Shown: positions 3,412 to 55,952 of the stretch, piece by piece
How positions within the stretch are numbered: position 1 is the stretch's first letter
Layout: the number at the start of each line of letters is the position of its first letter
NCBI GenBank assembly: GCA_044892525.1
Contig: CM097887.1
Coordinates: 134,022,397-134,086,396, forward strand
Reading direction: 5' to 3'
DNA length: 64,000 bases
DNA from: Schmidtea polychroa
Lineage: Eukaryota
Translations under genes and position numbers: made by a program
The notes under the pieces: generated by a model
What the model was told of the DNA's origin: nothing
Seen by the model: only the letters and a program-made list of their open reading frames with translations
Database searches by the model: none

Positions 3412-6400
3412 TTTATGTATTCGAAATTTATTTCTTTGTTTGAGAATATTTTATTTCATTTTGATATTTTAAAGAGATAATTTAAAATCAATTACATATT
3501 TAAAATTTGCAAACATATTTGAAATGCTCGAATTTCAAAAAACTACACCGAATAACCTTCAAACTATCTTTTAATTTATTATACTTTGTTCTAATTTATT
3601 AACAAAACAAAATATTTCTTTTTGCTAAAGTCAAGTCAAGTCATCCTTGGATTCAGTAACCGCTTTTAATTCATTGTCTATAATTTTAAGCATTTCGAAT
3701 AATATCATAAAATTATTACTTGAAGGATTTCATAAACTATCTCTATTCTAATCATCAATCTGCGATTTTAAAAAATGTAATTTTTCTATTGAAATTTGTA
3801 ATTAACAATAAAAACGCAAAAAACATCTATATAATTAATGTTAACACGTTGTTAGCGGGAAATGAGTAAACACGTGTTTTGTATAATATCACCAGAGTGC
3901 GCGGCAGCCGACAAAACACCAACGTGTAAAAACTGATATTCGACGAAGTGAAGATTACGCATCACTTGATGTCACTATGTATGTACCTGTCAAAAATCGC
4001 CCACTTTTCGACGTGGAACAATTTGGTAATGATGGAAGATTTGTTTTGAATTATTTTAAAGCTTTCTTAAAATGAATCAAATTTTCAAAGTATTTTAAAA
4101 GTTTGAAAACGATGAAACTTATGTACAAGGAGAAATATAGTAAAATTGTTGTAAATAATAATGTCGAATATCTAACATATGTTGCCATCTACAATTGATC
4201 TCCCATAATATTCCTATTATCTTTATCTTTAATAACAAAATATCTCATAACGTAGAAGTTTCAAGAAATATATCCCTCTTGGTAAAGGAATGTGTATCAC
4301 TGTAATTGAATTGTTTTGGATATTTTAAACTAATCATCAATAAATTAGTATCCAATATCAACGAAAAACAATCTAATGCAAAAAGGAAAAAGGAAGTTCC
4401 TCATTCTGAATTAAATTGGACGGGATTACCACCAACATCCCCAACAAGAACAAAGTAGTCAATTTAATAAAAAATAATTAGTTTTAACATTTAATAAGGC
4501 CTAAACTTAAACCTTCAGTATCTATTCAATATCTGAGTACTGACAAACGAATCAGCTCAGGCGAACTTTCTAGTAGAGGATCTTCTGCTGAACAAAGTAC
4601 TAGAATGTCTTCCCCAAAACCTAATAGACAAAAGTTTATGACCAGCAATCGTCCCGATAGTGGTTCATCATGTTCATCTACATCAAGCGCCAAAGCTTAC
4701 AGAACTCAGCCACATAAAGCAAGGGTAATTAAATTCTGTTGCTTTTAGACGTTAAATTTTGTTAATCATTAAAAATTAAAAACAATTTTTATAAATATTT
4801 TATAAAATGCAACAATTCTAAATATAAATTTATATTTATTTAATAAACTATAATATTGTGGAATTAATAAAAATTATTGTGAATAGTAATCTTTTTAGCC
4901 AAATATCCCAAACAAGCGCGATTCTGGGTGAAAACATTTTCTTATTTTTTGTTTTAATTATTTGTTTAAATTCAGTCATTTTAATTTATTTGTTTAAATC
5001 ATTCCTTTCTTGTTTTAATCTAAAGTTCTTATAAAATTTAATTTTTTAATTTTTAAAATTTTTTTATATTTTTCACAAATAAAAAGCCTAAAAATCAATT
5101 CTCAATAGAAAGGCCCTGGAACTTGTCCCCAATAATAAAGTCTAATAAAGGATTTTTCAACAAAGTAATTTTAACCACTATTTTTATTTTTAAATGCAAC
5201 ATTTATTAAATTTTAGACACATTAGATAGAGTTATTAATATTGGTTATCTACAATATCAAATTAGAAAAAAAATTAAAGAAATAGATGAAATATTAAGCA
5301 TTTTAAGTTATTCTATGAAAACGCTTTTAAAATAGAAAAAGAATGTAATTAGGAGAAAATAGTGTCAAAAGGGAAGAATTAAAATCTGGAATCGCTACAG
5401 CTAACAATGGAAACGAAGAGTATATTAAACAATAGTATCCATACAATTATGCCAACAATGTTCAGTTGCTATATATTTGTTGTATGATAGCTTCATTAAA
5501 TGCATTACCAAAGGCACGATGACACAAATCAAACAATTCTTTCATGAAAATCGTAATATAGTAGTTCCTAAACTTTCTCTAAGTTTTCCTACCATTTGTC
5601 ATGAAACAATAGTTGCGTCCGCCTCAATTTTTATAACAATCTATGCTTATAAATGCTGTCCATATATTATAATTTCTTTAATGAACTTCAATACTATATA
5701 CTATATTTTGTATAAATGTAGTTATTATTCATCAAAATATATTTATTTATTATGGTATTTAGGAAATTCAATACCGGTATTTCGGTATTAAAAATTCAAA
5801 TACCTGTATTTAAAAAAAATTAAATTTCATACAAAAAATGTTGTTTCAATTTTTATTTGAAGTAAAAAACATAACTTCATTAATCATTAACATATCACAT
5901 AATATTAAAAAAAAGTTTTCGAAAACTTATATACCTATAGGTATACATATACTTACTTTAAGCATTCTTAGTATCCCTAAAATATGATCTCAACATACAA
6001 AGATAATCTAGGGTTTCGTCGTTCAACCTTAATCTCAGCTTATTTAGCAAAATACCAGTTAATGAAAACGCTCTTTCAGATTCCACAGATGTTGGTTGAA
6101 CCATAAGAAGCAAATCATACACCTGTTACAAATATACTCCACTTGTTCCCTCATCTTCAAAAATACTCATTTCCTTTTGTAGACACTTGACTAGATCATG
6201 AACTAAACGAGTTTATTTCACAGCAACTGTGTAATTCAGTTTTTTACAAATCGCTTGATCTAATTTCTTTTTCATTAAGTTTTTACTTCCAAACTCAGAC
6301 TCAGTTTCATCTTCCGTTTTTGCAATAAACTCGACATCATCTACCACGAGTTCCTCTATGGTCTCATCATTGGGTTTCCATAGCCTCCTTTGATTTACTA

Positions 6401-9400
6401 CGTTTAAAAGACACTTGGAGTCCACTTGTCGAGCAACCAGCAGTTTTAATAGTTTTTGAACACGTTTGCATTTCGCATAATGACCATGTAATTATTTAAG
6501 ATAGTAAAACCAAATCGAATTTTTATCTTCTGATTTTTGATGTAGGATAACTTTCAAATTTTCTTCCATGGCAGGGCAGGTATTAAAAATCTGTTATGTA
6601 GGATTAAATTATCATAATTTAATTATAAATAATGCATACAAATTAAACTAAAAAAACACAAAATTTATAAGCAACAATTAAAAAAAACAGAATTTTGTGA
6701 GTTTTTAATGAAATTATATTTAAAAGAATTATTGAATTAGTTAATTAGTTTGTTTAAAAAAGAGCAATTTAGATTGATTTAGTTTGAATTTCAATTCTAC
6801 CTGACGATGACAGTGATTCTGTCGAAATATATTGTAGTAAAATATATATATTGGATTTGGTGTTTTTCGTTATATTTAAATCAATGTCATTATTTAGTGG
6901 CTGTTATAATAAATTATATTATTGTCAAATTATATCACATCTCTATCCTACTTGATAATGATATTTAGACTGTGAAAATATATATTAAAGCGGATGTCTA
7001 ATTGGCGCATTTGAATAATTAAACCATCACCATTTTTTTATTTTATGACAATTTGTTAAATATTTTGAATTTATCTGTCGTCTAATATCTTAAAGAAAAT
7101 TGTTTGGAAATATTTGATTTATGACTTGTTACCAAACATTTTGTGAATGATTATTTAAAATATAAATATTTAGAGCCAAAGTCGTCATGATTGTTCAGAA
7201 GAATCTGAAACTCCTCGACCTCAAAAAAATGGTAGTGGAGAAAGAAATAAATCCCTTAAAAATAAATTTAGTAATAAACCCCAGAGTGATGAACAAGATA
7301 TTTTTTTTAAAGATACACTAGCTCCTATATTAGATATTTTAAGTGCTCCTGTTGAATTCAGAAAGCAAAATAGTACTGAAGACTTTATTAATTTGACTAA
7401 GTTACTTTATTCTAAACTTGATGAAAAAAGCTTGTTGGGAGAACATTGTGTTTTCCGTTCAGATATTTTGAAAGCAGTGTTCAAAGTTCTCGATTCAAAA
7501 AATCCAATACTAGTCATTTCTGCAGCAAAGATCATTTTATCAGTGAGATTTATTTTCAATTTGTTAAATTGCAAAGATATTTTTTTTAAATAACGAATAA
7601 AATTTCTCTGTTTCTCTTAAACTTATTTGCTTTTAAAATAAATGAAATATCATTAAAGAAAATAGTTCAAAAGTTGCACCAAGAAAACAAAGATTTTACA
7701 AAAGATTTTACAAAAGATAAAAAACAAAAGTTTAAACAATCCTAACTCAAAAAATTAGAAAAAATTTGAGAGAAAATTCTATTTTATTAAAAATAAGAAT
7801 GAGCACATTTTTTGAAAGAAAAGCTTATGTTCATAATGTTAAATACAAAATTATAAAAAAATATAAAAAATATATAAAAAAAATACAAAATTACAAAATT
7901 ATTTATCTACATAAATAGTCAGTTATTATAAAATAAGAATAATAATGATAAATAGTTAATCTAAATAATCTAATAACATCAATAATATTTCATTTAAATG
8001 TTTTATAAATAATATATAATACTGATCAATAATTTAATATTAATTTAATACTTCTATTAATTACAACTATAGTTAATTGAAATTAATGTAATATATAAAA
8101 CATGAAATTCTTAAGAAATAAACAAGACAAGGATTCAACGATTAATGGATACTGAGATTGGAAACTATAAAATCCACGTGAAAATGTAAAATTTCTATTA
8201 AATAAGTATGAGAAAAAATCGAAATACATTAGAAGTATGAAAAAAGAAATATGAGACGAAATGAGAAGTTTATAAGCGGAGACAATATAAGGAACAAAAT
8301 AAAAGTAAAGTTTTATTGCAGAACTATTGGTTACAGTACCGAAGAAAAAGAGAAGTTTAAGACTGTTTCTGAAGCGGACGAAAATACCTTAAGAAGTATA
8401 AAATCAAAATTCATAAATGAAATAAATACAGCGAAGAGATTTTAAATACGACTGATAAAAGTGAAAGAAATAAATGCAGTTTTCATAGAAAAATACTAAT
8501 AAAGTATTTAAAAGCATAGTAAAAAATGTAGAAATATTTACATGGCTCCAAGATTTGATTTAAGATATTCAGATCTCGTAAAACTCGAGAGAAGGTTTAC
8601 TAGAATTCCATCAATGGAATATTCAAGAAGACAACAGATGATTTAGAACAGAAAATAGAGAAAAGGCTAATGAAAAGCCAATGTGATAAAAATTGCAAAA
8701 CAGCGCTTAGTAAATAGTAAAGAAACAGAATTTGATTGGTAAAAATATACATTGATTACAGAAAATTTAATGTCAATAAATCAACAAACAAGATCGAATT
8801 AATTTTTACATAAAATACAATTTTTTTTTGAGGAATAAAAAACTAATTTTCAATATAATTCCAATTGAAAGGTAAAAGCAATCTTTCAGATTTAACCAAA
8901 TTTTAAAAATTTCATTTTTTTTATAAAAATTTGTTTAATATTAATCATGAAACTGATTATTTTAAAATTTTCAATCTCTATCGAAATTGTCGTGAATATA
9001 TTATTGTTCATTGTTTTAGATGATAGTTCGAGATGTAAATTTACTAAATATCTGCAAACTCATATACAGAGTATCAAAAAATAAAAACAATGACAAAATA
9101 TTTGAGGAATTCGAAATGGCAAGTATGTGACAATAAATTACATTTTATTCACTCTAAATTGATTGAGATTTTTTATTATTATTTTTATTATATTTAAACT
9201 ATTCTATTATTTAAAACAATAAAATGATAATTTAAGCATTTTGCTGCAAATAATGTATTTAATGAAAAAATTTTCGACTATAAGATAGTCCTCAAGGAGA
9301 TTGTCAAGGACTATCTTATAGTCGAAAATTTTTTCATTAAATACATTATTTGCAGCAAAAGACTTAAATTATCATTTTATTGTTTTAAATAATAAATGTT

Positions 9401-18400: not shown

Positions 18401-21400
18401 NNNNNNNNNNNNNNNNNNNNNNNNNNNNNNNNNNNNNNNNNNNNNNNNNNNNNNNNNNNNNNNNNNNNNNNNNNNNNNNNNNNNNNNNNNNNNNNNNNNN
18501 NNNNNNACACTAATATAGTTTGAGGATCCAGGCAATCGATATTTATCGATTAAACATACTTCATATATAATAATCATATGGGTTTACATAACATCAATAT
18601 AGGTGTCAAAACAATCAAATATCCCAACACAAATATATCACAATTTTTAATAATAAAATGCAGAATAATTAATTAATTATATAAAATTAGTAATAATAAA
18701 GACAATAAAAATCATTAACTCATATGAAACAAATAAAACAAGAACCATTTTTTATGCATTTTTATAAGGTGGCCAGATTTCTTTTATCTTGAAAGCATTA
18801 CAAAAAATGGAAAAGTGCGTGTAATTTTAAATAAAAAAAATTATTTCAATATTTTTATTTTTTATATTTTTCATTTAAATTATTTTTTTCAATAATGTAC
18901 CATTTTCTTTTAAAACATTACAAAAGCCTTGGATATTCACTGAAGTCACTTCTAATATGGTTTCTATGTTTTTTTTGCCACTACTCCAGAAATCAAAATT
19001 TATAATTGAAATTATCTTTCAACTGTTGCATTAGTGCCCTATAAGCACATTGAAAATTAGGCAACTAATTTCAAATTTTTTATATGAATTTACTCATCTT
19101 TAAAATATTTATTTATTTCTATCCAACAAAAATTAACTCCTATTTTATTTTTATTCCATTCATATAATTTTTCCGTTGAACAATAAATTGTTTACTCGCC
19201 TAACTTCATTGAAGAGTTCACTCTCATCAATAAAAATGTCGTGATTTTCTACCACATAATGAACTGCTTTCAAATTATAAACCCAATCTAATTTATATTT
19301 CTGTATCTCGTTATTCTCATTGAAATTCCATATAATCACAGCTGTTAAACTGTGGATCGAGTATTAACTTTATCCATTTAAATTAATTAAAGATTCGAAA
19401 TTCAAATATTTATTCTCATTCACAATATTTAAACAAGAGGATTATTTTACGTCAACAATATCTTATGCAAGAAAACATCATTCTATTAATTTAAATTATT
19501 AATAATATTTACAATTATTATTTACATACCATACTTATGAAATTCTAAATTAATACACAATATTTAAATTAGTTAATTAATTACGTTAAGCTCTATTTAA
19601 TTTATTTCTTACAACAGCCATAATAATTGATTTTCACAATATTATCCAAAGCAGTACAATAAGTACAGATCATAAAAATTAAATACTGTATTTTTGAAGT
19701 ATCACGCCTGATCACCCTAATTTTTACATTACATAACATAATACTCAGTGGATAGAGTTCGTGTTTATTCATGAGATATAAAGATTTTGCCACTCCCCAA
19801 TTTATGACCAAAATATTTAGTATAGTCATAACTTTCGGTTAACATCAATGAAACTAGGTGCGTATTAAAACTATTTCAATTAGTAAATTTCCAACGCAAA
19901 GACAACATTACAATCATCATATAATCATGTTCTATTTATATACATGCATTGGTTATAGCCGAAATATGACTAAAGACACTTAGCGCTACCATTTGCTCCC
20001 ATATATAAATGCAGATAATCCTTAGTAGTAGTTGGCGAAAGTATAATTAATGTAAAATTATGATTATTAATATATGATATAGTTTGAAATGAAATTTCAT
20101 ATTTTTAGCATCTTATTCTAAGAATCGCTTATATTATTGGCGATATGCTTACCAAATCAGAAGAAGCTCGACTCACCTTATTTCCAGATAAAATTAGTCT
20201 TGAAAGTTTCTTAAAAGTGTTTCAGATATATATTCAAAAATTTCAATGCTGTGATGAAAATATTAATAAAATGTCTGGTGATTCAATTGAAAAAGACACA
20301 GCATCTGTTGATGACATAATCGTAAAACTGTTGCGAGTTATTGCAAATGCTGCCATAACAGAGCCTGTTGGTCGAATGATATGTTACAGTAAATCATGTT
20401 TAACTCTTCTCCTATCTCTTATTAGTAAGATGTCTTTTTCTAATTTATACTGTTTAAATACTTATAAAAACAAAATAATGAGAAAATAACAAATAAGAAA
20501 AATTAAGCAAAAATTTAAATTTTAGTTCAAATCTAATAATATACAAAATATACTGAAAAAATCTTAAAATTAAACTTATTTTAAAATTTTGGTTAAAATT
20601 ATGTCATTTTCACTTTTTATGCGCCATTGCCTATTCAGAAATTACTTTTATTGAAATCTATGCACGAGAATTCTCCATTCTAAAATATCAACTCAAAATT
20701 ATTCCATTAAAATGGTGAAAATTTATGAATGTATAATTTAGCTGTACAATAAATTAATGAGCTATTAGCGAGAGAAGGAAAGATCGTGCGAGATTTGCGG
20801 TAAATTTTCATGAAACATAAATAATTTATGGCGAAATGGGCAATTATTTAGAAGCAACGCAGATATCAGAGCTACTTTTCAACGGTTTCCCTTGGTGGAG
20901 GTATTTCAGGATGGCATATGAGTCATTATTATGTAGTCAATGGGACAATATGAACTATTCAATGAATCGCTTTTGAAAATTGACAATTAAAAGATTAACG
21001 ACAATGTTAAAATTATGACATTTCTAGAGGAAACTGTTATTATCAAAGTAATTTATGGATCATAGATTAATTACTATGATGTTGAAGGACTGCCAACGAA
21101 GATTATCGTTACCAGTAAAGACAAAGATGGATTGATAAAAAACAATTAAATGCTCGATCTTCTCTAAATATATGTCAAAGTTTACAAAAGTGATGTATCC
21201 ATCATTATCCAACCATTATTCCTTACTATCAATAAACAAATAGCGTAGTCTTTGAATAAAGTGGAAATAATTCTATAAGAACTGTATTGTTACCAATAAT
21301 ACTTACAGAACAAGAAATAAGAAAAATTTAAAGATATTTATCCAAAACAGTGAAGTAAAAAGAAGGTTGTATTCAAAGAAATGGGAAATACAAATCATCC

Positions 21401-24400
21401 CAGGAATAGTCTAATTGCCCGGCTTTCAGTGGTTGCTTTTGGATGTTTTAGAAGAATTTTTGATATCATTCATAGATAAAATCAGATGGCACAACTGAAT
21501 CTTCTCAGATTTTTAGAACTACTCTGTGAATCCAAGAAAATCAGCCTGTTTTCTAACGGTTGGATTGTAAGGTTTCAACAAACCTCTTATTTTGGAAACT
21601 TCTCTTTTGTATTCTTCTCTCGTATTTACGAAGATAATTATTTCATCTTTGTACATGTCTGATCGACGAAGTTTCCCAATGCATCTTCAAAATGTTTGCT
21701 AAGGATTTAAATATTCCCATCGAGTTAAACTTGAATTTTAAAAATTTAAAACATAAAACCAATTATTATGATAAATTTCACTTGATTAAATTTCAACCAA
21801 TTTCTTTTAATTCTAAAATTTTAATTTTATATTCAGACTCCAAAAAAATACTTGATAAAGAAGAGCTTTTGACAATTTCCATCTCAGCTCTGAATAATAT
21901 ATCATTTTATATGACATCCGTCAACAATATTGAAATAAAAAACAATCATTTAAAAATAATTGAAGGTTCATTTTTATTATAAATTTTCATTTTCATCTAT
22001 TATTTTCGGCTAGCACTTTATAAAATAATTGCTAATAAATATGGTAAGGATCATTTGGGTGGGATTATACGAGTGCTGGGAAATTTGTCAAGAGAAATGT
22101 ATATGAGAGATTGGATAGTAGATAATCAACTGGTTGAGTTTCTGATAACGATTCTAGATTCAGACAATCAGGATACTGTTTTCTTTACAGTTGGAGTTAT
22201 ACTTAATCTTATGACGGATCAAAATAAAAGACATTTATTACTTGACTTTAATGGGATTACAAAGTATGTTGGATNNNNNNNNNNNNNNNNNNNNNNNNNN
22301 NNNNNNNNNNNNNNNNNNNNNNNNNNNNNNNNNNNNNNNNNNNNNNNNNNNNNNNNNNNNNNNNNNNNNNNNNNNNNNNNNNNNNNNNNNNNNNNNNNNN
22401 NNNNNNNATCAATATGAAAAATAATTTATTTGGGATAGAAATGTCAAGAAATTGAATTATTTGAATTGAAGTATTGATAAAAATTAAATATTAACTTTAA
22501 AGACTAATTATATAAAGTATTTTTTAAATAGTATTTTAAAATTGATTGCAGTATGGAACTAACAGGAAACACATAAAGTAAAATCAGTATAATGTACAAG
22601 TTATCAGTACTATATTGACGTATTGGAAGCAGAAATAAGCCAGCAGCAATCGATTTGTCATCTCTAAAATTCTCTAAATTTTTAAAATATATGAGAAAAT
22701 AAAATAATATATAAACACTATATATAATATAGAAACACTATATATACATTTTATTTAAATTTATATGAAATAAATAGGTACTGATAAAATTATGAAAAAC
22801 CCATATTATCAGAAAGTTAGTTTGTTGCTATTAAAAGTAATGTCAACTAATCTTATTAACTCCATAAAATGAATGACAAATTGCATAATCACATTATACA
22901 CACTATTAACACGGTAAGTTTCCATTCTATTCAACTATAAAACTTACCAATATAGACCCTAATATCTGGCCATAAAGTAACTTATTGGTTTAGTAAACAA
23001 TGCTAGATGAACATTAGCAATTACAAATACTGTTTTCTTATTATTTTCTTATTTACATATTTATTTTTTAATTTGCATATTTATTTTCAATTTCCCTCTG
23101 ATACCTTATTTTATTTAATGTGCACAACGTTAAAGTAGGAGTACTCAACCATTTGCGGACACTGAAATCTTTTTATTCTTTAAAACAACTTACGGAACAT
23201 ACATTTTTAAAAAACACTAGGTTTTTTAATGCAACAAGTTTTAGATATTGAAATTCTAAAACAGTTCCAAAGAATCGGTTTTATTAAATGTAAATGGGAA
23301 CACATTAGAAGTTTTAAGGAGTCCATATTGAAGAACACTTTGATACTTGAGGATTTTTATACATATCTCCTTTCTATAGACTTAGGTCATGGTATAGGTC
23401 AATTTATACGACTTATTTAAAATAATAATTTGATTAATTAATTAATTAATCATTTAATTAAGACTAATAGAAGTTCTCAGAGACTTTGCTTCAAGAGATT
23501 GGCAATTAGCTGGACTTGTTTGTCAAACACTTTGGAACTATACGGAAATCATCAGTACAACAACGGAAGCTATTTTGGGAGGAGAAGAAAATACTGAAGA
23601 ACTTTTACAACTTCTGACGATGTTTACCGGTAATATTGAAATCTTAGATATATTAATAATAAATGAATTTAATAAATTTTTAAAATAAAACTTTAAAAAA
23701 ATCTGAATATTTCATTTTTTATATTTTTTCAATTTACTAATTCATAATTTCATATCATATTTTGTTGTTAACATTTTTAATTTAGTGAATAATGAGGAGT
23801 ATGATTAGTGGGATATTTTAAATGAAGTTAATATTTTTTTAATTTAATTATTTGTTTAAATGAAGTGGTTTCTGATATCTTTAAAATATTTAATTTCGGC
23901 TGTAATTAAATATTCTATTAGATTTCACAGGTCTGCCAAGAAAAAAACGTGTCGCAAACCAAATTTCCTAATTTAATTATTCACAAATCAATTTTACAAT
24001 AATTTATTTNNNNNNNNNNNNNNNNNNNNNNNNNNNNNNNNNNNNNNNNNNNNNNNNNNNNNNNNNNNNNNNNNNNNNNNNNNNNNNNNNNNNNNNNNNN
24101 NNNNNNNNNNNNNNNNNNNNNNNNNNNNNNNNNNNNNNNNNNNNNNNNNNNNNNNNNNNNNNNNNNNNNNNNNNNNNNNNNNNNNNNNNNNNNNNNNNNN
24201 NNNNNNNNNNNNNNNNNNNNNNNNNNNNNNNNNNNNNNNNNNNNNNNNNNNNNNNNNNNNNNNNNNNNNNNNNNNNNNNNNNNNNNNNNNNNNNNNNNNN
24301 NNATATCAATTAATTATACAAAAATGGAGATATTAGGTTGGTGAAAAAGAAATCTATTTTTAAGTTCATTTTGAATCTTTATTTAATATTCGCTTTGACT

Positions 24401-29285: not shown

Positions 29286-31108
29286 TCATAAATTTATTAC
29301 TTACAAAGTCTTCACTGAAAATTATAAAAATATATAAATAAATTATTAATTATAAAAATATTTGATCATTACTTGAAAATAATTATATGAAATATTTAAA
29401 AATCAATCGGAATCACTAGGCAACGGTATTACAAAAATAAAAACTAATTAATTAAAATTTGTTGACATTATAAATCATTTTGCTAAAAAATGAAATATCA
29501 CCGAGGGCGACAAATGCAAAGTGGCCTGTCATATTAGAGCTCGTTCATAAAGGTCGAGGATTGCTGATTTGATACTGAACTGGGAAATGATAAATGTTCA
29601 CAGTCAGTTTAAAAAGAGAACGACCAGATTATGGATGAAAAACCCTAGTAATCATAGAATAACGGATTATATTGCGACAATCAATTTCAATTGCTGAGTT
29701 ACCGGATAAAAATAAAATTCCTAGTTTTAACTCCAAAAAAAAGAAATATTTGCCAATTTTTCCAAAGCATCAGATAATTAAAGAAAACGTTCGAAAAGTT
29801 TAGTATCACTAAATTTATACAAATTTCAAGGTTTGGTTGTTGATATATTTTAATTTGATTATAATGAAATAAAATTTTTTATTTGTTGGTTTGTAATAAT
29901 AATATTTTTTAATAATATTTTTTATAAATAATATTATAATTGACAAGAATTGCGATTTGCCTTTCATACTAAAATGATTAATGTCATTAAAATTTTAATT
30001 AATTAATAAATAAGACTTTAATTTCATTAACTGAAAATTATTATATTCGTATTAAACTTTTCATTACAACCTGCTCGTAGCTTTCCCTGGAAAATATTAA
30101 TTTTTCAAATTTTTGATTAACATTTTTGCATTTCAATTTGCATTTTATATCATTTTTAATTGATTTGCACTCGACTTTTGTGGATTTAAATTTTATTTTT
30201 AAATAACTCAATATAATGTTTTTTGATTAATTATTATTTTCAAAAAATTATAAATATTAAATAAACAATTAATTTACCGGAAAACAATTATATTTCCATC
30301 TAAACTTTAATTTTACTCATAAATTTTCAACATGAAAAATTTGATTGTGCTCAGAAATGTAACAAATGAAAAATATATTAATTAAAACAAATAATATTAT
30401 TGTAAATGGAAATTTTTTTTAAAAAATGATTTAATATACAAATTATTTTTATTTATCTAAACAGAGTGGTAAAATCTATTAGAAGTCTTATTGACAACAT
30501 CTTCCTCTCACTTAAAGATATTTCCTTTATTTCATAAATTGAAAAATTCAATCAGCTATTTCATCAACTATATTTACAAAGACAAAACAGAAATTATTTC
30601 AGCGATACTTCGCTATTCTCAATGTGAAAAATATCTATTCAAGCTTGAAAATTTATTTATTCCATTTTTTAACCAAGTCGATAAAAACTAAATAATTTAT
30701 TCTTGCATCGTTTTCAGTGTTAATAATTTGATTTGAAATATTAAGGAGAATTCTTTACACTTAAAGATATTTTGATTTAAAATTTTCAATCTAAAAAATA
30801 ATANNNNNNNNNNNNNNNNNNNNNNNNNNNNNNNNNNNNNNNNNNNNNNNNNNNNNNNNNNNNNNNNNNNNNNNNNNNNNNNNNNNNNNNNNNNNNNNNN
30901 NNNNNNNNNNNNNNNNNNNNNNNNNNNNNNNNNNNNNNNNNNNNNNNNNNNNNNNATAAATAATATGATAAATAAATAAATTTACCTGAAGGAAGATCGT
31001 CATGACGAACGAGACGATCTATGGGAACTCGGAGAAGAAAACAAAAATAAAAAGAAATGAGAAATTAGAAAGATAAATCAAACCAAAGAAAGCAATCAAT
31101 AAATTAAT

Positions 31109-31653
31109 TAACCACGTTTTTAGACACTGAACAGGGTATTTATGCTGACAGGGCAACTCGTACACTTCATCGGCCACCTCATAATCTGACAGACAAATGG
31201 AACCTGTATCATTAGCTTCGGTGATTTTCTTGACTTTTTTTCTTGCCTCATTTGCTGGTGGAGGACCACTCTGTTCAAATTGATTCATAATACTCGTTAC
31301 AAAATTGTCGAAACTTTGATCTGAAAATATGTAATCTGACGAATCTGATCCAAAATCTAGAGGTAGCAATCCACCAAAAATAAACTTGATATTAGTTGGC
31401 CAAAAACACTATTTCTGTTATCAGGATCTCTTGGAGTAATAAAAAAGGAACCATCAGTTTCGTCTGTAGTACTTCCACCAGGAATATGACGAATAATATG
31501 AAAACCATTCAAGGTGTCATCATCACTTTCCATTAAGTTATCCGATTCAATTCTTTCAATAAATCCATCATTGCACGTCACACATTTACCATCCTGAGAT
31601 ATGTGAACGTCCCTGTTGCATTTATGATAATAGTAATTATCTGTATTAATCGT
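31109..31653 (-). pseudogene. RNF115/RNF126-like E3 ligase pseudogene (N-terminal zinc finger to truncated RING-H2)
   Basis: YYYHKCNRDVHISQDGKCVTCNDGFIE...DYIFSDQSFDNFVTSIMNQFEQSGPPPA...GSICLSDYEVADEVYELPCQHKYPVQCLKTWL. Lesions: frameshift in the T-run near 31378, ACG instead of ATG, ligand substitutions, no final CxxC. Confidence 0.85.
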
Positions 31654-31792
31654 AGTGATTAAAGAAACTTTATTTTAAAAAAAAATACACTTCCAGAAAC
31701 CTACCAAATTTAAATAACTTGATCAATCCAAAATATAAAATTCAAAAAAAACTCACATCTCCAAAAAATTTGATTAAAACTCGACAATTGTC

Positions 31793-31854
31793 CGCGTCTG
31801 TGTGCGCACACAAATCAATCCAAATGTCCAAGCCAAAAAACGCACACAGACGCG
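31793..31854. promoter_or_regulatory. Inverted pair of the 14-mer CGCACACAGACGCG, copy A (putative promoter element)
   Basis: CGCGTCTGTGTGCG (31793-31806), 34-nt spacer, CGCACACAGACGCG (31841-31854). It lies 140 bp upstream of the RNF126-like start. Confidence 0.6.
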
Positions 31855-32235
31855 AGACATGAACTGATAATTAACCACAAAGGTCATCATTAATTGAGAA
31901 GTGCAAAGAGGAAAAGGAATTTCAAATTTCAAAAATAGAAACAGCAGAAAATGCATAATTTGACAGCTTATCACAGATATCGGAATTGCAGGAAAAGTCG
32001 GTCTAACAAAAAAGAGCAAAGACAGGAACAATGGAAAATGCAGAAAGAAGAAAAAGGGCGGGAAAAATTATCTCAAGTATCGCAAATGTAACAAGCTATA
32101 AAAGGGAAAAACACAGAAGTCATAAGAAGTGGAAAAGCGCAGTTGAAGCACAATTACAAAAGAGAATTCAGAAATATTTAATTGGGAGAGTAACGAGAAT
32201 CTTTGGAAAAATCTAATATAAAAATGGAAGTGGAG

Positions 32236-32482
32236 TAAATAATTTGTGGTCAAAGCAAATAGAGCAATCGATTAGCGTACCCTGTGAGTGATTATTGTTA
32301 TTATTATTGGCAATTATACACGGAGAGCTATTCTTCACGTAAGTGTCGCAATAAGTTCTGTATAATTATCTATTTTAGAGTTGATTGGTTTTGTAATTGC
32401 AAGCTTGTTCGAGATTGTTAATATGTGAATCAATAAAACACGCTTGGAGTCAGAGACGGGATTGTGAATTTAGAGTTTATCA
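32236..32482 (+). mobile_element. Possible LTR preceded by a purine tract and a decayed coiled-coil ORF (from about 31885)
   Basis: AAAAATGGAAGTGGAG purine tract, internal AATAAA near 32432, ends in ...TATCA. No partner LTR was found. Confidence 0.3.
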
Positions 32483-32556
32483 TCGATCAATAGACCCAAT
32501 AGTAATAATAATAATAATAATTGAAAAGAATCACAAGAAAGCAAATATTTATTTAT

Positions 32557-32781
32557 ATTCAATAAAGCCGGAATAGACGTGACGCTTGGTGGTTTCGATT
32601 CAACATGCATTGGTACTTTAATTTCAATCAAATCATCTATAGAAAACTGTATTCCAATAACAGGATCTAGATCACTTGTCGTTAAATGTTTTTCAATAAA
32701 CCTTTTTTCATAAACATGTCCTGATGATCTATTTAGAACTGGAACTTCAGGAATTTCGTTGGAAACCGAACAAATTAACAA
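32557..32781 (-). pseudogene. PRPF19: PRPF19 (Prp19) U-box fragment lacking its own ATG
   Basis: LICSVSNEIPEVPVLNRSSGHVYEKRFIEKHL...DPV...DDLIEIKVP...KPPSVTSIPALL matches the Prp19 N-terminus. It is truncated before the coiled coil. Confidence 0.88.
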
Positions 32782-32814
32782 GAAAATTGAAACTGAATCA
32801 TATATCTGAGAACC

Positions 32815-33106
32815 TTTCAAATCTCCAAACGAAACTTTTTTTTCCAAATCCCAAATCTGGAAAGACGATCCAGTTGCAGAACATAGTCAATATATGTTTG
32901 GTGAGAAGGTACGTTTGTTAATAATATCACATATTTCTAAAGAGCATAAATGTCTTCCTTCAGATAAATTCTATAACATTAAAGTTCTGTCCCATGGTCT
33001 AGACAATGCAAATTTACCATCATTTGATGCAGAAATAAGATTATTTGAATAGATTGGGTTAGTTGTCATCTGTATAAGTGATTCGATCGAATTCAAATTG
33101 TTCCAT
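32815..33106 (-). pseudogene. RACK1: Internally deleted RACK1 pseudogene fragment, in frame with the PRPF19 fragment
   Basis: MEQFEF / QMTTNPIYSNNLISAS | NDGKFALSRPWDRTL | ML*NLSEGRHLCSLEICDIINKRTFSPNIY*LCSATGSSFQIWDLEKKVSFGDLK correspond to RACK1 WD1, WD2 and WD6 segments. Both stops replace conserved Trp. Confidence 0.85.
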
Positions 33107-33237
33107 TATCTCTCGCCAAAAATAATTCCAAATTTCAAAATTCCTTTCAAAAAAATCTCTTTTAAACAAAAAGCCCTAATTCTACAATTTTCAAAAACAA
33201 TAATAATTTTTTATTACAATAAAAATTATCCATTCCT

Positions 33238-33296
33238 CGCGTCTTTGCGCACACTATTACGAACAAAAGTCTGACAATAACGCGCACACAGACGCG
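33238..33296. promoter_or_regulatory. Inverted 14-mer pair, copy C
   Basis: CGCGTCTTTGCG (33238-33249, variant), 33-nt spacer, CGCACACAGACGCG (33283-33296). It lies 132 bp upstream of the RACK1 ATG. Confidence 0.55.
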
Positions 33297-35388
33297 ATAA
33301 AAACACCAAAATCGGCTGAAACAATAATAATAATAATATTAATATTAAACAAGTAAATGATAATATAAGCCTTTTGCAATAAAGTGTATTTTGAATAAAA
33401 TGAAATAATTTTCAATTTTAAAAATGATCCTTATCAATTTCTGGGAATTTAGCTGTTTCGATTTTCAAATACTTTTTGATCTTCTTTTTATATTTTCATT
33501 TCCTCTCTTTTCATTGGTTAAAATTAATAAAATAAATCAAAATAATGATTTTAATTCATCCAATTTCTTGGAATTTTCATAATTTCCTTTCATATAATTT
33601 GGTAATTTCTTCAAATTTTCGTATATTTAAGACTAATTTATTTTATTTTCTCGATTTTTATTAGTTCTTTGTAGTATTTGTCATTTTCAGTTCGGAATTG
33701 TATCTTATTAACTTTGTAGTATCGCTTTATTGGCCACTTCTTTATCTTCCAGCTTTTCATGAAAATATCAATCAATTTTCTTTAATAATTTTCCTCATAA
33801 CCATAAATATTTCCCAACTATATTTCATTCACTTTCTGTTGAAAATTTCATTTTAAATTGATAATTTTTCTATAAAATTTAGTTAATGCTTGTTTACTCT
33901 CCATGAATTTCAGACAAATTAAACAATATAAATAAATTTTAACAAGTTCGTGTGACCTGTGCAATAAATGGCGCATTGACAGTTTGTAAGATTTTGTAAA
34001 CTCAGTAAATTTGTTAATATTTGGTTGAATTCATCTTACAAAATAAATTCTTTTATTTTTAAATTCCTTAAAAATTGCTAGAAATTTATTGCTAATTCAA
34101 ACTATAAAACAAAAGAATTTTATGAAACAATTGATAAATTTAATTAATTTTTTATTGTCTAATTCATTAAAATAGATTAAAAACGTTCTTTTACGTTTTC
34201 TATTAATTATTTCCTTAAGAAACTTAGCAGTAAATACTTTGAATAATTATTTGATAATTCTCTTCGAGCTTCCAATTTGAGGTAAATTATATTTCTAATA
34301 AATTTTTATTGAGAATTTTCGGTTTCATTAAAATTGATTATTTAATTATAAAAAAGATTATTTTTAATTGTTTTAATCTTTCAAATGAAAATAATTAATT
34401 TAATTTATTAATGCATTTTTAATGTTATAAATATATTTCTATTTATCAAACTAGGTATTTTAAAAATTAGACTTTATATTTTGAGTTTTTTTAACTACAT
34501 AATCCATTAATAAATTTATACAAGTACTATTCGGTGCAATTGTTTTATGCATAAATTGGATAAACAACATTAATAAATTAAAATAAAAAAACAGTGAATA
34601 TTTATTAATGAGAATTTTGTAAAAGTTATATTTTATATCTGACTGATCACAAAATTATATAATTAATTAAATTTCCAAATATGAATTTTATAATTAAATT
34701 AATTATTTTCTCTAGAACTGTTGATTGTTGAACATAAAAACCAATTTTCAGTTGGCTAAATTCGAGACAAAAGTGTGGTGGAGTCATCCAGAATAATATT
34801 TAAATGCTCAGAAATCTTTAGACAAAATAATAGAAAAAAATCCATGTTACAAAATTCATAAATAATTGAAGCGAAAAAATTAATTAAAAATTGAAAAATT
34901 AACATCCTTCGGGGGAAATGGATAAGGCCAGGTGGGAAATGGTGAGACAAATACGAATAAAGCAATATACAACTAATTAAGGGTCCCATGAAAAAGTTAT
35001 TGAAGAAATATAAATTAATTAATTCATGAAGTGTAAAATAAATAATTAAATAAATAAATTTAACAAAGAAAATAAAGTTGTGAGGTGGATCGATATATAC
35101 AGTTAGGAAACAGTTTATTTGAAATAATGAAATAATAAAAAATAAATATATTTCAATAAAATAATAAAACAATAATAATTAAATATTTTTAGCAATTTTA
35201 TTTTAATTTACTTTCTAATAAAATGTTGGTGTTCCGTGTAGTGCCTCTGACTTTCATATTAATAAATATATTAATTTAATAATTAAATTTCAAATACATT
35301 ATTAAATTAATTAAATTAAAACATATTTTTTTAATATTCTCATATATACACTTTCTCTCAAACCTCTCCATCCTTTTAATCAATAAAA

Positions 35389-48414: not shown

Positions 48415-51179
48415 CAGACCCGAATTAACATCTTCGTAGGCCCTAGGCACTTTTAGCTTGGGAGACCCTCTCGCATAATTTTTTGTCAGTACAGTATCCC
48501 TAATGAAGTCAGCTATATCGCTAATTTTTAAAATGGGTTAATAATTCCATAGTGCTTTATTTTAACAACATTTTATTTTATGAACGTTATTTTAAGGACT
48601 TTATTTTTTTCTTTATGTTGTGTTATAACACAACCGAGCGTTTTTCTACTACGCCCGAAATTGCGTATTTCGTATGTATGTATAACGTTGATGAGTATAC
48701 TAATTATTATACTTTAAATGTTTTTTTCTAAGTTTAAATCCCACGTATTAAAAAAATAATCCTCCTGCAAAAATATTCAACCCGCCTGCTATGATTGCTA
48801 TGGTTAATTATCAATAGCGATTTTTTACATATAGGAGTGAATTTAAATTTGCGTATTTAGTAGCTGTGGATTTATGGTTGCAATTGTTTTTTTGTAGTAC
48901 TTTTTTTACAATTAGTTTTCAGAAAAATTTAAGAATTATAATAGTGTTTATTCTTTGTTAAAGTTATCTATAGTTATGTTATTTATAAACGATAATATTT
49001 CTTTAAACTGTAAATATTAATTATTTAAAAGTAAGTCTTCTTTTTTAAATATATAATAATTTAATAAAAATATTAATATATATGTAATTCCAAATATAAA
49101 TTATTTAATAGTAAATCAAAAAACAAGTGATTTGTATCAAAAGGAATTCTAATTGAAGTACATATATTAAAAAGTTCCAGTTGTACTAACAATAATAAAA
49201 ACAAGCATCTCTATATAAAATCTATAAAAGTGTAGATTAAGTATATTGTTAAATTATGTAAATACTGGATTGAAGTTTTAAAGAGAATAGTTGCCGTAAT
49301 AAAATTTCTATCTGAAAGAGGTTTGCCATTCCGTGGGAATAATGAAATTCATAATTGTTCTAATAATGGAAATTATCTTGGTTGTATCGATCTTATAGCC
49401 GAATTTGATCCTTTTTTAAAGGAGCATATTCGAAGACATGGAAATCCTGGAAGAGGAAATGTTTCCTATTTATCTAATATTATATGTGAAGAATTTATTG
49501 GTATACTAGAATCCAAGGTAACAACGCAGATAATATCTGAAATTAAAGAAGCGAAATATTATGGAATCAGCATTGATTCAACTCCTGATATTAGTCATAT
49601 GGACCAGATTACCGTGATAATTCGGTATGTACTTAAATGTGGAAATGTGGTTGAACGATTTTTAAAATTTATTGCAATTGAACAACACGATGGAAAATAT
49701 TTATTCGACATTATACGACATACTTTGGAACATCATAACATAAGTATTGGAAATTGCAGGTCCCAATCATATGATAACGCCAGTAATATGAGCGGCATAT
49801 ATACAGGTGTACAAGCTAGATTTAGAGAAATAAATAAACTGGCGGAATGGGTTCCATGTGCTGCACATAGTCTTAATTTGGTGGGTTCAACTGCTGTGGA
49901 GTGTTGCCTGGAAGCAGTAAAGTTTTTTGGAATTTTAGAAGCAATATATACTTTTTTTTCCGCTTCACCACAGAGATGGTCCAAATTTAAAGACAATATG
50001 AAAGAAAATACTTGTGTTGTAAAAAATTTATCAGAAACCAGATGGTCTGTACGACATGATGCTACTAAAGCTCTATTCATGAATTATTCAGAAATTCAAA
50101 AAGCATTGTTTGAAATAACTGAAAGCGAACGTCAGCCTGCAGTGGCTGTGCAGGAAGCTAAATCTTTAATAAAAAACCTGAACAATTTTGAAACAGCATT
50201 GATGTGTGTTATTTGGAATGATTTATTGCAAAATATTAATATTGTCAATAAAGCTCTGCAGGAGACTGGCATAGAATTATGTACCATTGTCAAATTATTT
50301 AAAACTCTCATAGCTTACTTTCATGGTATTCGTATAGAGTTTGATAAATTTGAAACCATGGCAAAAAAACTTACAACTTCCGAATATAAACAACATACAC
50401 AACGTAAACGAATAAGAAATAGATTTTTTGACGAAGTTTTAGACAACACCGATCCTAGTTTGAGCCTGAGTGCAAGTAACAAATTTCGTATTGAATCTTT
50501 TTATATAATAGTAGATAAACTTATTATTGAGATGCGTAAACGTCTTGAAGCATACGGAATGTTATATGAAAGGTTTAATTTTTTAGTGGACAGAACTTTG
50601 ACAAATGATGAAATAGTTTCGAAAGCAAACAAGTTAGTGCAAATATATTCTTCAGATGTTGAAGATGCATTTTGTGACGAGTTTTTATTATTTTCACGAA
50701 TGTATGGAGATAAAAAATCAGTGAACGAAATGTTAGTTGCACAAATAAATGATAAATTAGTTACCAGTTTTCCCAATGTAAATATTGTGTTACGAATTTA
50801 TTTATCAATATTTGGTACGAATGCGATCAACTATGGGGCAGGAACGATTGTCAGCACTAACACTTTTATCTATTGAAAGTGATTTAATGCGAGAGATTAG
50901 TTTCGATGAGGTTATTGTCGAATTCGCAAATAAAAAATGCAGAAAAGTTATTTTAGATAATAATTGAATAAATTGTTTACTAAATTAATGTTATTTTTTT
51001 ATATTTTTTTGAAAATAAATTTTTAATTATTATGAATTAAATCAATTTTTTTTCATGCTCTGGTTAAATATTTATAATATACATTTTTCGTAAGTATAAA
51101 TACATATTTTCGTAGGCCATTTAATATTCGTAGGCCCTAGGCACTGTGCCTACTGTGCCTATGGGATAATGCGCGCCTG
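48415..51179 (+). mobile_element. hAT (Tip100/ZMYM1-like) transposon with a long but defective transposase ORF
   Basis: CAGACCCGAATTA...TAATGCGCGCCTG with perfect TSD GTGACCTG. The open frame 49260-50876 has KFLSERGLPFRG, ISIDSTPD, SYDNASNM, CAAHSLNL and TRW. The C-terminal RSTMGQERLSAL is in another frame. Confidence 0.92.
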
Positions 51180-54351: not shown

Positions 54352-54497
54352 CAGGGGTGGGCACGCATGAGGTCCTCGAGAGTCAAATACAGGTTTTCCC
54401 TGTATTACAAAAGGCCACAACATATTTTCATATTGTTTAAGTACAGTACACATTGGAGCCACACAGCTCATCAAAGACCCGCACTTGCCCACCCCTT
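54352..54497. mobile_element. Small hAT (Buster-type) MITE
   Basis: CAGGGGTGGGCA / TGCCCACCCCTT, perfect TSD TGCTATAG. Confidence 0.8.
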
Positions 54498-54658: not shown

Positions 54659-55101
54659 CAGTGTTTCCCAAACTATTTCTTTTCGCAGAACCCTAAAATT
54701 CATTGTTTTATTTGGCGGAACCTTAACAATTAAAAAGCTCAAAATTTAAAGATTGAGACTAAATTTATTTTAAAACTATTAGTGAGAGGAATGCCACTGA
54801 TTTTCACAGGAAAATATTTCAATTCAAGATTCAATTGACGACAGGCAAATTCACATTTCCCTCAAAGTTTTCAACCACCAGTAATTGTTCGCGCTTCTTA
54901 GATTTATTTCGGTCAGTGCTGAGAATCCTAATTCACATAAATATGATTTATTGACGAAACTTGACAAATTGACTAAAAATTTAAATTACATTCGTAAACA
55001 TCCGTTGGAGAAATTTTAAAATTGACAATATCTATTGTCAGAGATCATTATCCCGCGGGACCCTTGAGTTTTCTCACGGAACTTATTTAGAAATATCACT
55101 G
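54659..55101. mobile_element. hAT (Buster-type) MITE inserted into the WD40 pseudogene frame
   Basis: CAGTGTTTCCCAAA left TIR, degenerate right TIR, perfect TSD GCTTAGAT. Confidence 0.8.
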
Positions 55102-55691
55102 GCTTAGATTAATAAAAGAATTTAAATTAACATTTGTAGTTTTAGTTGATTGTTTAATGGTCGAAAGGAACATGTTGGCTCTGATAAACTCGCTCTGATA
55201 TTGAGCATCATATTCTTTCGAAGCATCAGCTAAAAGCCTTTGACTTGATTCCTCATATAATAATAACTCATGTTCGGGGATAACGGCAAGCATAAAGTCC
55301 AAATTTCCATGCGTCTGTTCCAGTTTTATTGTTCGAATATAAAGAAATTCATATTTGGATAATGGATCAACTATCCACTTAAAGTCAATAATTTCTGAAC
55401 CTTCAAATGATTTGAATTTATTAAACTTCATTTGATCAAGATTTAATTTCCATACGATTACATAATCACATAAATCCACACTTACAAGAATGAGTTAATT
55501 TCGTTGATTAATTTTGTTATTGATTCTGAATGCCCATATAATATATCACTCTGTTTGCCATCTTCTAAACTCCATACAATTATAATATCATCCATTCCAA
55601 CAGTGATTGCAACTCTTGATTTATTGTACCAAACTACATTTTCCATTTCGAAATCAGAACGCCAACGAATTTTAAATCTTTTTATTTTCAT
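55102..55691 (-). pseudogene. WD40 gene fragment (WDR27-like N-terminus), frameshifted and cut by a MITE
   Basis: IIVWSLEDGKQSDILYGHSESIT.../ILVSVDLCDYVIVWKL resembles the recalled WDR27 LCIWNTKD...ILRGHHQPIT...SASLDYVIMWNL. Frameshift near 55495. The downstream part is unidentified. Confidence 0.5.
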
Positions 55692-55810
55692 ATTCACTGA
55701 AAAAAGTACAAAATTTAAACAACTTCTCGAAATTCCAAACTTGACATAAAATCCAAAAATTTGAAAAACTGATAAATCTCCAAAAATTCGATATCAACTC
55801 GACAATTGTC

Positions 55811-55870
55811 CGGGTCTGTGTGCCCACACAAATTAATCCAATTTAAAAGCAAAAAACGCACACAGACGCG
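55811..55870. promoter_or_regulatory. Inverted 14-mer pair, copy B
   Basis: CGGGTCTGTGTGCC (55811-55824), 32-nt spacer, CGCACACAGACGCG (55857-55870). Flanks are homologous to copy A. It lies 120 bp upstream of the WD40 ATG. Confidence 0.6.
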
Positions 55871-55952
55871 AAACTTCAACTCATAATTCACCAGTTGATT
55901 ATTATATTTATTTCTATTTATTTAACTAAATAAGGTATTTGGAAACGCCACC

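Follow-up and report, generated by a model that had tools for sequence, protein, structure and literature searches.

Three solo LTRs at the locus

The window analysed here, a stretch of 64,000 nt from Schmidtea polychroa (contig CM097887.1; C3:134022397-134086396 in the coordinates used below), carries on its minus strand three solo long terminal repeats (LTRs) of a retrotransposon, in which pieces of RACK1, of PRPF19, of an RNF115/126-type gene and of a WD40 repeat are embedded. A first-pass annotation had reported the first three pieces as truncated, intron-free fragments within 2.2 kb, each following one motif pair, and had proposed a gene-capturing mobile module or a locus that collects gene fragments. 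The genome searched for related copies comprises 781 Mb of AT-rich sequence with four large contigs, and loci in it are cited by contig (C) or by number (L). The features of the three units and of the repeat that one of them interrupts are as follows.

31104..31877, minus strand: solo LTR 2 (RNF115/126-like cargo), 774 bp, TGGTTAATTAT...TTAATTAA; terminal ACA and target duplication lost
31104..31655, minus strand: spliced RNF115/126-like cDNA with exons 1-6 joined; start codon lost, one frameshift near 31378
31793..31854, minus strand: inverted motif pair of LTR 2
32522..33323, minus strand: solo LTR 1 (RACK1/PRPF19 cargo), 802 bp, TGTTTCAGCC...TTTTCA; 5-bp duplication ATTAT inside a TTA run
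32523..32557, minus strand: element-type tail of LTR 1; AATAAA about 30 bases ahead of the terminal CA, the same position as in paired LTRs
32558..32807, minus strand: 5′ untranslated region and exon 1 (U-box) of PRPF19, 85% to the host gene, nested at the common TTGAAAGC; start codon deleted
32814..33077, minus strand: patches of RACK1 mRNA, four blocks matching the host gene at 83-89%, without its intron 2 and with two in-frame stops
33235..33296, minus strand: inverted motif pair of LTR 1, with 14-bp arms
55151..55893, minus strand: solo LTR 3 (WD40 cargo), 743 bp, TGGTGAATTAT...ATTAAACA; ATCAAC at both flanks, frameshift near 55500
30970..31103, no strand: left half of an unrelated dispersed repeat cut by LTR 2; uninterrupted in L050 and L058, and run X1 contigs join across the LTR
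31878..32020, no strand: right half of the unrelated dispersed repeat cut by LTR 2; uninterrupted in L050 and L058

Solved-structure and Pfam matches bore out the identity, place and strand of the three neighbouring pieces. The best solved-structure matches of the RACK1 piece were all RACK1 (E 4e-23), the PRPF19 piece gave a solved-structure match at E 5e-17 together with Pfam U-box, and the RNF piece carried Pfam Zn_ribbon_19 and zf-RING_2, a zinc ribbon and a RING-H2, a layout from which we presume the name RNF115/126. Six-frame translation and comparison with the host genes indicated that the pieces are indeed broken and free of introns, and the RACK1 piece has in addition large in-frame deletions. 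The third unit, previously described as WDR27-like and starting at 55102, starts at 55151 and its cargo is a generic WD40 repeat piece; the piece may resemble AAMP/Sqt1.

The motif pair CGCGTCTGTGTGCG...CGCACACAGACGCG is real, with three occurrences in the window and 2,147 exact ones genome-wide, against 0 for the reversed control. However, the 2.2 kb hold two pairs and not three, PRPF19 having none of its own. The pair constitutes the conserved 5′ part of the LTR and folds well as an RNA hairpin, with compensatory changes at only 2 of 173 changed positions (148 distinct pairs); it may act as a hairpin or as a pair of protein-binding sites. Several LTRs carry the pair twice, and one lineage (L044, L045, L052, L060, L084 and L135) has an additional GC-rich hairpin (CCAGTCAGAGG...TCTGACTGG) immediately inside the start of the LTR. 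A planarian promoter "inverted motif" was looked for and not found. The motif is not described in the available part of PMC11410931.

The cluster is not a tandem array, since LTR 1 and LTR 2 are separate insertions with 644 bp between them and with different target sequences. Target-site duplications, of which none had been recognised before, were found as ATTAT and ATCAAC at LTR 1 and LTR 3, along with TG...CA ends; the sharp termini common to copies are TGGT(T/G)AATT...ATTAAACA in the RNF and WD40 families and TGTTTC...TCA in the RACK1 family. Among sister copies with both ends defined, exact 5-bp duplications flanked 6 of 11 in the RNF family, 10 of 18 in the WD40 family and 2 of 11 in the RACK1 family, and a further 1, 4 and 5, respectively, matched at four of five flank bases (18 of 40 exact and 10 more at 4/5), these tallies including three primer-site copies in which no duplication is expected. 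Genome searches with the three units returned 1,125, 2,468 and 745 first-look candidates, spread over all four large contigs; these figures are not copy numbers, and 40 candidates were scored per search. No internal element region was found in the window, and thus the units are solo LTRs; for this reason, and because their cargo and termini differ, LTR 1 and LTR 2 are not the two ends of one element. The three units are therefore independent solo LTRs, each from a dispersed family.

Two further observations concern the surroundings of these insertions. (TTA)n runs hold many LTRs of the family, often within another repeat that contains such a run (6 of the 40 sister copies; window 32498-32521 and 33324-33530; L008, L016, L017, L029, L044, L055, L135-L138, L146 and L165), and a target preference for such runs is possible. 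Two stretches of the window, at 31-34.5 kb and at 55-56 kb, have 100% identical counterparts about 288 kb downstream (C3 ~134.34-134.37 Mb; L001, L031, L061), which reflect either segmental duplication in the very recent past or the duplication of a segment in the assembly.

An abundant BEL/Pao element as the vector

Sister copies of the window LTRs are directly followed by a primer site, as in the RACK1 family (L036, L083/L105), the RNF family (L127, L147, L167, L168) and the WD40 family (L076, L216, L220); in the RACK1-family copy L036 the LTR is followed by TGGTAGCAGAG, and no partner LTR was found for it in 40 kb downstream. The primer site TGGTAGCAGAGCGTGG had 430 exact matches in the genome, against 0 for the control, and over 18 nt it is the complement of a tRNA-Met(CAT) that has initiator features and is encoded in the same genome. 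The initiator-type tRNA-Met genes, which encode the element's primer tRNA, stand in a tandem array with a 454-bp period at C1:79.32-79.39 Mb (L205-L208). A 19-base tRNA-Met pattern had 1,228 exact matches genome-wide, and no tRNA gene was found in the window.

The structure of the element was assayed at 60 primer-site loci, the first 60 of 100 listed sites, all on C1. A second LTR was found within 8.2 kb at 31 of the 60, and the identity of the pair was at least 99% in 20 of these 31. Exact 5-bp duplications surrounded 14 of the 16 full elements with clean ends, a polypurine tract stood ahead of the 3′ LTR in elements with paired LTRs, and the 16 paired LTRs checked had AATAAA or ATTAAA about 30-55 nt ahead of their ends. 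Internal regions were mostly 3.0-3.6 kb or 5.6-6.1 kb long, giving element sizes of 4.6-8.0 kb, and Pfam searches of L146, L161 and L180 identified DUF1759, RVT_1, Peptidase_A17, Integrase_H2C2 and DUF5641 in BEL/Pao order. The vector is an abundant LTR retrotransposon, BEL/Pao on every feature tested, and its cargo lies within the LTR itself. Tandem elements with a common LTR, and a 159-bp tandem repeat made up of an LTR end and the primer site, were also observed (L169/L170 at C1:74.02 Mb; L088/L090 at C4:3.94 Mb). The TG...CA ends had at one stage been read as Ginger2-type or terminal inverted repeats; this was abandoned once primer-site copies and paired-LTR copies were found.

Cargo from spliced host RNA

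Intact parental loci, for which the annotation had suggested a search, were found for RNF (seven exons, C1:218195975-218200023), PRPF19 (C3:72.296 Mb) and RACK1 (C1:38.26 Mb; the host segment is 79% identical to a fluke protein). All have introns, and no motif pair was found near them in the 20 kb (RNF), 10 kb (PRPF19) and 3.4 kb (RACK1) read. The Pfam Prp19 search returned mostly LTR copies, and the PRPF19 parent was recognised only through its uncaptured WD40 part. The window RNF copy matched the host coding sequence at 525 of 550 aligned bases over codons 2-188 of 220; the module is mobile as had been proposed, but this cargo is not a 5′ gene part. Five GT-AG introns of the RNF gene (42, 49, 112, 45 and 3,086 nt) are precisely absent from it, one intron is lost in RACK1, and intron 1 of PRPF19 is crossed in spliced form in sister LTRs. 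Spliced parent mRNAs were also present in contigs of sequencing runs guessed to be RNA. These results demonstrated that the cargo is derived from spliced host RNA, and the retro-capture branch of the earlier proposal held, with intron loss and an LTR vector.

The junctions were informative in their own right. The sixth RNF intron lies at AAA/CATGGTA, and AAACATGGTA, which arises in the spliced mRNA only, equals the LTR end (AAACA) followed by the primer site's first five bases. PRPF19 is nested inside the RACK1 piece, which resumes after it in most sister copies, and both genes carry TTGAAAGC at the switch point. At the two junctions scored, the apparent microhomology amounts to 10 nt at the RNF end and 8 nt at RACK1/PRPF19. 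Another LTR, L203 (C1:154965756-154969115), contains a nearly complete RACK1 coding region from which both introns are gone, and is probably close to the original RACK1 capture that gave rise to the deleted forms.

Cargo at the primer-site loci extends well beyond these genes. Pfam identified DSPc, Proteasome, Cpn60 (CCT chaperonin), Ras, EAP30, Adaptin_N, U-box and RING, often two per LTR, and by eye we take further pieces to be CstF77, eIF3f, myotubularin with ClpP nested in it, and HSP70. A protein search with the WD40 cargo, in which 150 of 478 candidates were scored, yielded 152 matches.

The parents bear directly on whether the cluster is a decayed segmental duplication of adjacent genes, a chimeric misassembly or a locus collecting gene pieces as small-RNA templates. 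Although the same contig holds a second, 100% identical copy of the block at a distance of 288 kb and no aligned contig spans the whole stretch, the parents are unlinked (C1, C1 and C3) and lack the motif pair, so that they are not natively adjacent and simple duplication of unrelated genes is insufficient, as the annotation had argued. Moreover, dozens of the places scored, spread over all four large contigs, hold the same chimeras. Each unit is bounded by its own ends, occupies a target site of its own and has many dispersed relatives, and the two neighbours were inserted separately, which argues against a collecting site. We regard this group of explanations as very improbable.

A Pack-type DNA transposon (Ginger2/TDD-like, with TG...CA ends and 4-5-bp duplications) or a Helitron carrying genomic gene fragments, both named by the annotation, would account for the short imperfect inverted termini TG(G/T)TTAATT and the 5-bp duplications in two families. 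It is scarcely tenable, however, in view of the paired LTRs, primer site, purine tract and internal regions containing reverse transcriptase (RT): the five introns were lost precisely, when such a vector would carry intron-keeping cargo, and elements with the same ends encode RT and BEL/Pao domains, not transposase or Rep/helicase.

A third alternative places the entry at the DNA level, with host cDNA reaching an integrated LTR by non-LTR retroposition or cDNA-templated repair and being amplified with the element afterwards. Intron loss proves an RNA step and not its place, and repair also yields microhomology. Nevertheless, neither a poly(A) tail nor an inner target duplication was found around the window cargo, many unrelated genes were captured repeatedly in the same part of the LTR, and the RNF cargo forms the LTR terminus exactly at the primer site. 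We consider entry at the DNA level unlikely.

A proposed leader ahead of ubiquitin and Gag

At the same 60 loci, one and the same reading frame was in every case the longest across the primer site. Upstream of the site, the LTR was open for at least 100 codons in the Gag frame at 39 of 60 loci (median 170) and in either of the other two frames at none of the 60; counted by cargo cluster, the Gag frame was open in 16 of 33 groups. Ubiquitin was found within 1.5 kb after the primer site at 50 of the 60 loci, in frame at 34, and in frame and stop-free at 29 with ten spacer lengths. Its three types end in LRLRGG, LGLAGG and LRLCGG, the Gly-Gly being present in most copies. At several loci, single open frames of 1,100-1,700 codons start inside the LTR, and the three window units end in the same phase as the Gag frame. 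The first 40-120 codons after the primer site form an AT-rich, hydrophobic, Tyr/Ile-rich spacer of variable length and in frame (L129, L140, L146), possibly a membrane segment or a read-through intron.

On the basis of what was observed (LTR identity, primer site, BEL/Pao domains, intron loss, junction microhomology, frame bias and Gly-Gly), we hold with good confidence that the LTRs carry pieces of spliced host mRNA, likely captured by template switching, and likely kept stop-free as the N-terminus of a leader-ubiquitin-Gag(-Pol) polyprotein with a predicted cut after Gly-Gly. Transcription would start near the motif pair and end near the LTR end, placing the cargo in an unusually long R region. 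This region would be copied first by the tRNA-Met-primed reverse transcriptase, as minus strong-stop DNA, and switching would happen here, the enzyme moving, where a few bases match, to a host mRNA packaged alongside and then returning. Strand transfer would require the conserved leader only, so that new cargo could come to stand in both LTRs. If translation begins in the LTR, captures that close the frame would lose Gag and die, and sense in-frame pieces would remain. Ubiquitin fusions are cut after Gly-Gly by host enzymes. The ubiquitin may thus act as a cleavable spacer from which host deubiquitinases free Gag, so that nearly any open upstream frame would be tolerated. Recombination between LTRs would finally yield solo copies, which decay, as those in the window may have done.

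Several observations weigh against this reading. The transcript ends, translation and cleavage of the leader are deduced from sequence, and the copies are related, so that the counts are not independent. Other ATGs lie upstream of the in-frame ATG in 16 of the 16 LTRs checked, fewer than 100 codons are open at 21 of the 60 loci, and ubiquitin is out of frame in 16 of 50 (decay being assumed). Between primer site and ubiquitin, the four RNF-family copies that precede a primer site contain stops or change frame, and all three window copies are broken, these families showing only the end phase. A conserved AAG/GT (AAG/GTAAT) directly after the primer site could be a splice donor. A parent gene of the WD40 cargo was not found, all 15 matches retrieved of the 152 looking like LTR copies. 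Finally, the ratio pN/pS was below 1 in many cargo pairs (range 0.33-1.86), and some cargo peptides may therefore matter. As to transcripts, much of one internal region is covered by contigs of the putative RNA runs. This does not prove that the element is transcribed, and joints near the primer site in such contigs are not GT..AG.

The cargo ratios below 1 lead to an alternative that is compatible with the capture step, in which the cargo peptides are adaptive accessory proteins or decoys acting on the host after ubiquitin cleavage, or in which host-like sequence shields the LTR from piRNA silencing. Many donors are indeed ubiquitin-proteasome, splicing and translation genes, young elements keep Pfam-recognisable domains (DSPc, Proteasome, Cpn60, Ras, EAP30, Adaptin_N), and the cargo ratios are, as noted, often below 1. 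Pooled over non-independent pairs, however, cargo pN/pS is ~0.68 against 0.10-0.72 in ubiquitin-Gag, so that the cargo is less constrained; it is also truncated, internally deleted, shuffled and swapped among subfamilies, and mRNA abundance alone would give a housekeeping bias. Adaptive cargo thus seems rather unlikely, if somewhat less so than entry at the DNA level. A comparison with the host gene (pN/pS 0.18-0.61) was set aside, since selection of its own acts on the host branch.

Other features of the window lie beside or apart from the LTRs. Two small hAT-type inverted-repeat elements adjoin LTR 3 (54659-55101 and 54352-54497), with the 8-bp duplications GCTTAGAT and TGCTATAG, and an open frame of 546 codons at 49236-50873 on the plus strand is hAT transposase-like by eye. 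Open frames of 110-140 codons resembling host-gene exons occur at 5429-7590 and 20109-21979 on the plus strand, and the LTRs may lie in or near a host gene with such frames.

Relation to known systems and significance

Single traits of this arrangement have precedents. Coding sequence in the LTR is known from Ty1, where Gag starts inside the LTR, and from HIV nef and MMTV sag in U3; host sequence in the LTR is known from Cassandra with its 5S rRNA, and captured ubiquitin serves as a processing site in cytopathic pestiviruses. To our knowledge, none of these joins the traits into a repeatedly replaced, host-derived leader of 150-260 codons. Our literature search, with Repbase Reports, subscription journals and supplements outside its scope, found no description of an architecture with LTR-encoded host-mRNA leader, ubiquitin and Gag.

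The nearest known systems are BEL/Pao elements, among them the 'Flow' families described in Schmidtea mediterranea (de la Chaux and Wagner 2011, PMC3118150). By the available text of that paper, these are alike in TG...CA LTRs, 5-bp duplications, tRNA primer site and purine tract, and in DUF1759 Gag, RT, Peptidase_A17 and integrase with DUF5641, and the 4.6-8.0 kb found here falls within the sizes reported. The present elements differ in the exchangeable host-mRNA mosaics in the Gag frame of the LTR and in one or two ubiquitins before Gag; the main text of PMC3118150, supplements excluded, does not contain the word 'ubiquitin', and the likeness to Flow is one of description only. In LTR-mediated retroposition in animals, the retrocopy replaces part of the internal open reading frame (ORF) and kills autonomy (Tan et al. 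2016, PMC5131818). The parts available of that account agree with ours in partial spliced mRNAs, multi-gene chimeras, microhomology at switch points, lack of poly(A) and re-amplification; here, in contrast, the cargo lies inside both LTRs, gag-pol is kept and spread is as solo LTRs, so that the cargo does not have the between-LTR placement of that class. Maize Bs1 carries one chimeric ORF from three host genes, a single historic set, and in barley BARE-2 the foreign sequence switched into the LTR is that of a retrotransposon, not of a host mRNA; as far as PMC13317346 was available, neither is described there as having an LTR-encoded leader fused to Gag through ubiquitin. The giant Gypsy elements of planarians named Burro (>30 kb, with fixed internal domains; Arkhipova and Yushenova 2019, PMC6431247) are, in the available part of that source, likewise planarian LTR elements with host-like domains, including a ubiquitin/SUMO-like one, in the polyprotein, but they belong to the Gypsy clade and their host-like domains are not LTR cargo.

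More speculatively, and with considerable doubt, the LTR might be a standing gene-shuffling cassette, in which the long R region would keep sampling abundant stem-cell mRNAs and join them in a single open frame, the leader would be released through a captured ubiquitin, and thousands of solo LTRs across the genome would each supply a promoter plus a chimeric ORF, some of the cargo being selected for interference with host proteostasis or for piRNA escape.

Collectively, the findings mean that LTR elements can capture genes in the LTR while keeping gag-pol, and can do so time and again and on a large scale (2,147 exact motif pairs), with one LTR end built from an exon-exon junction beside the primer site. 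The families preserve a natural record of many template switches and allow their donors to be identified, which makes co-packaging bias, switch rules and frame selection countable. For work on this planarian genome, the hundreds of pseudo-copies of housekeeping genes, among them RACK1, PRPF19 and proteasome genes, are 85-95% identical to these and a potential source of error in gene annotation, read mapping, the design of RNAi and work on small RNAs.

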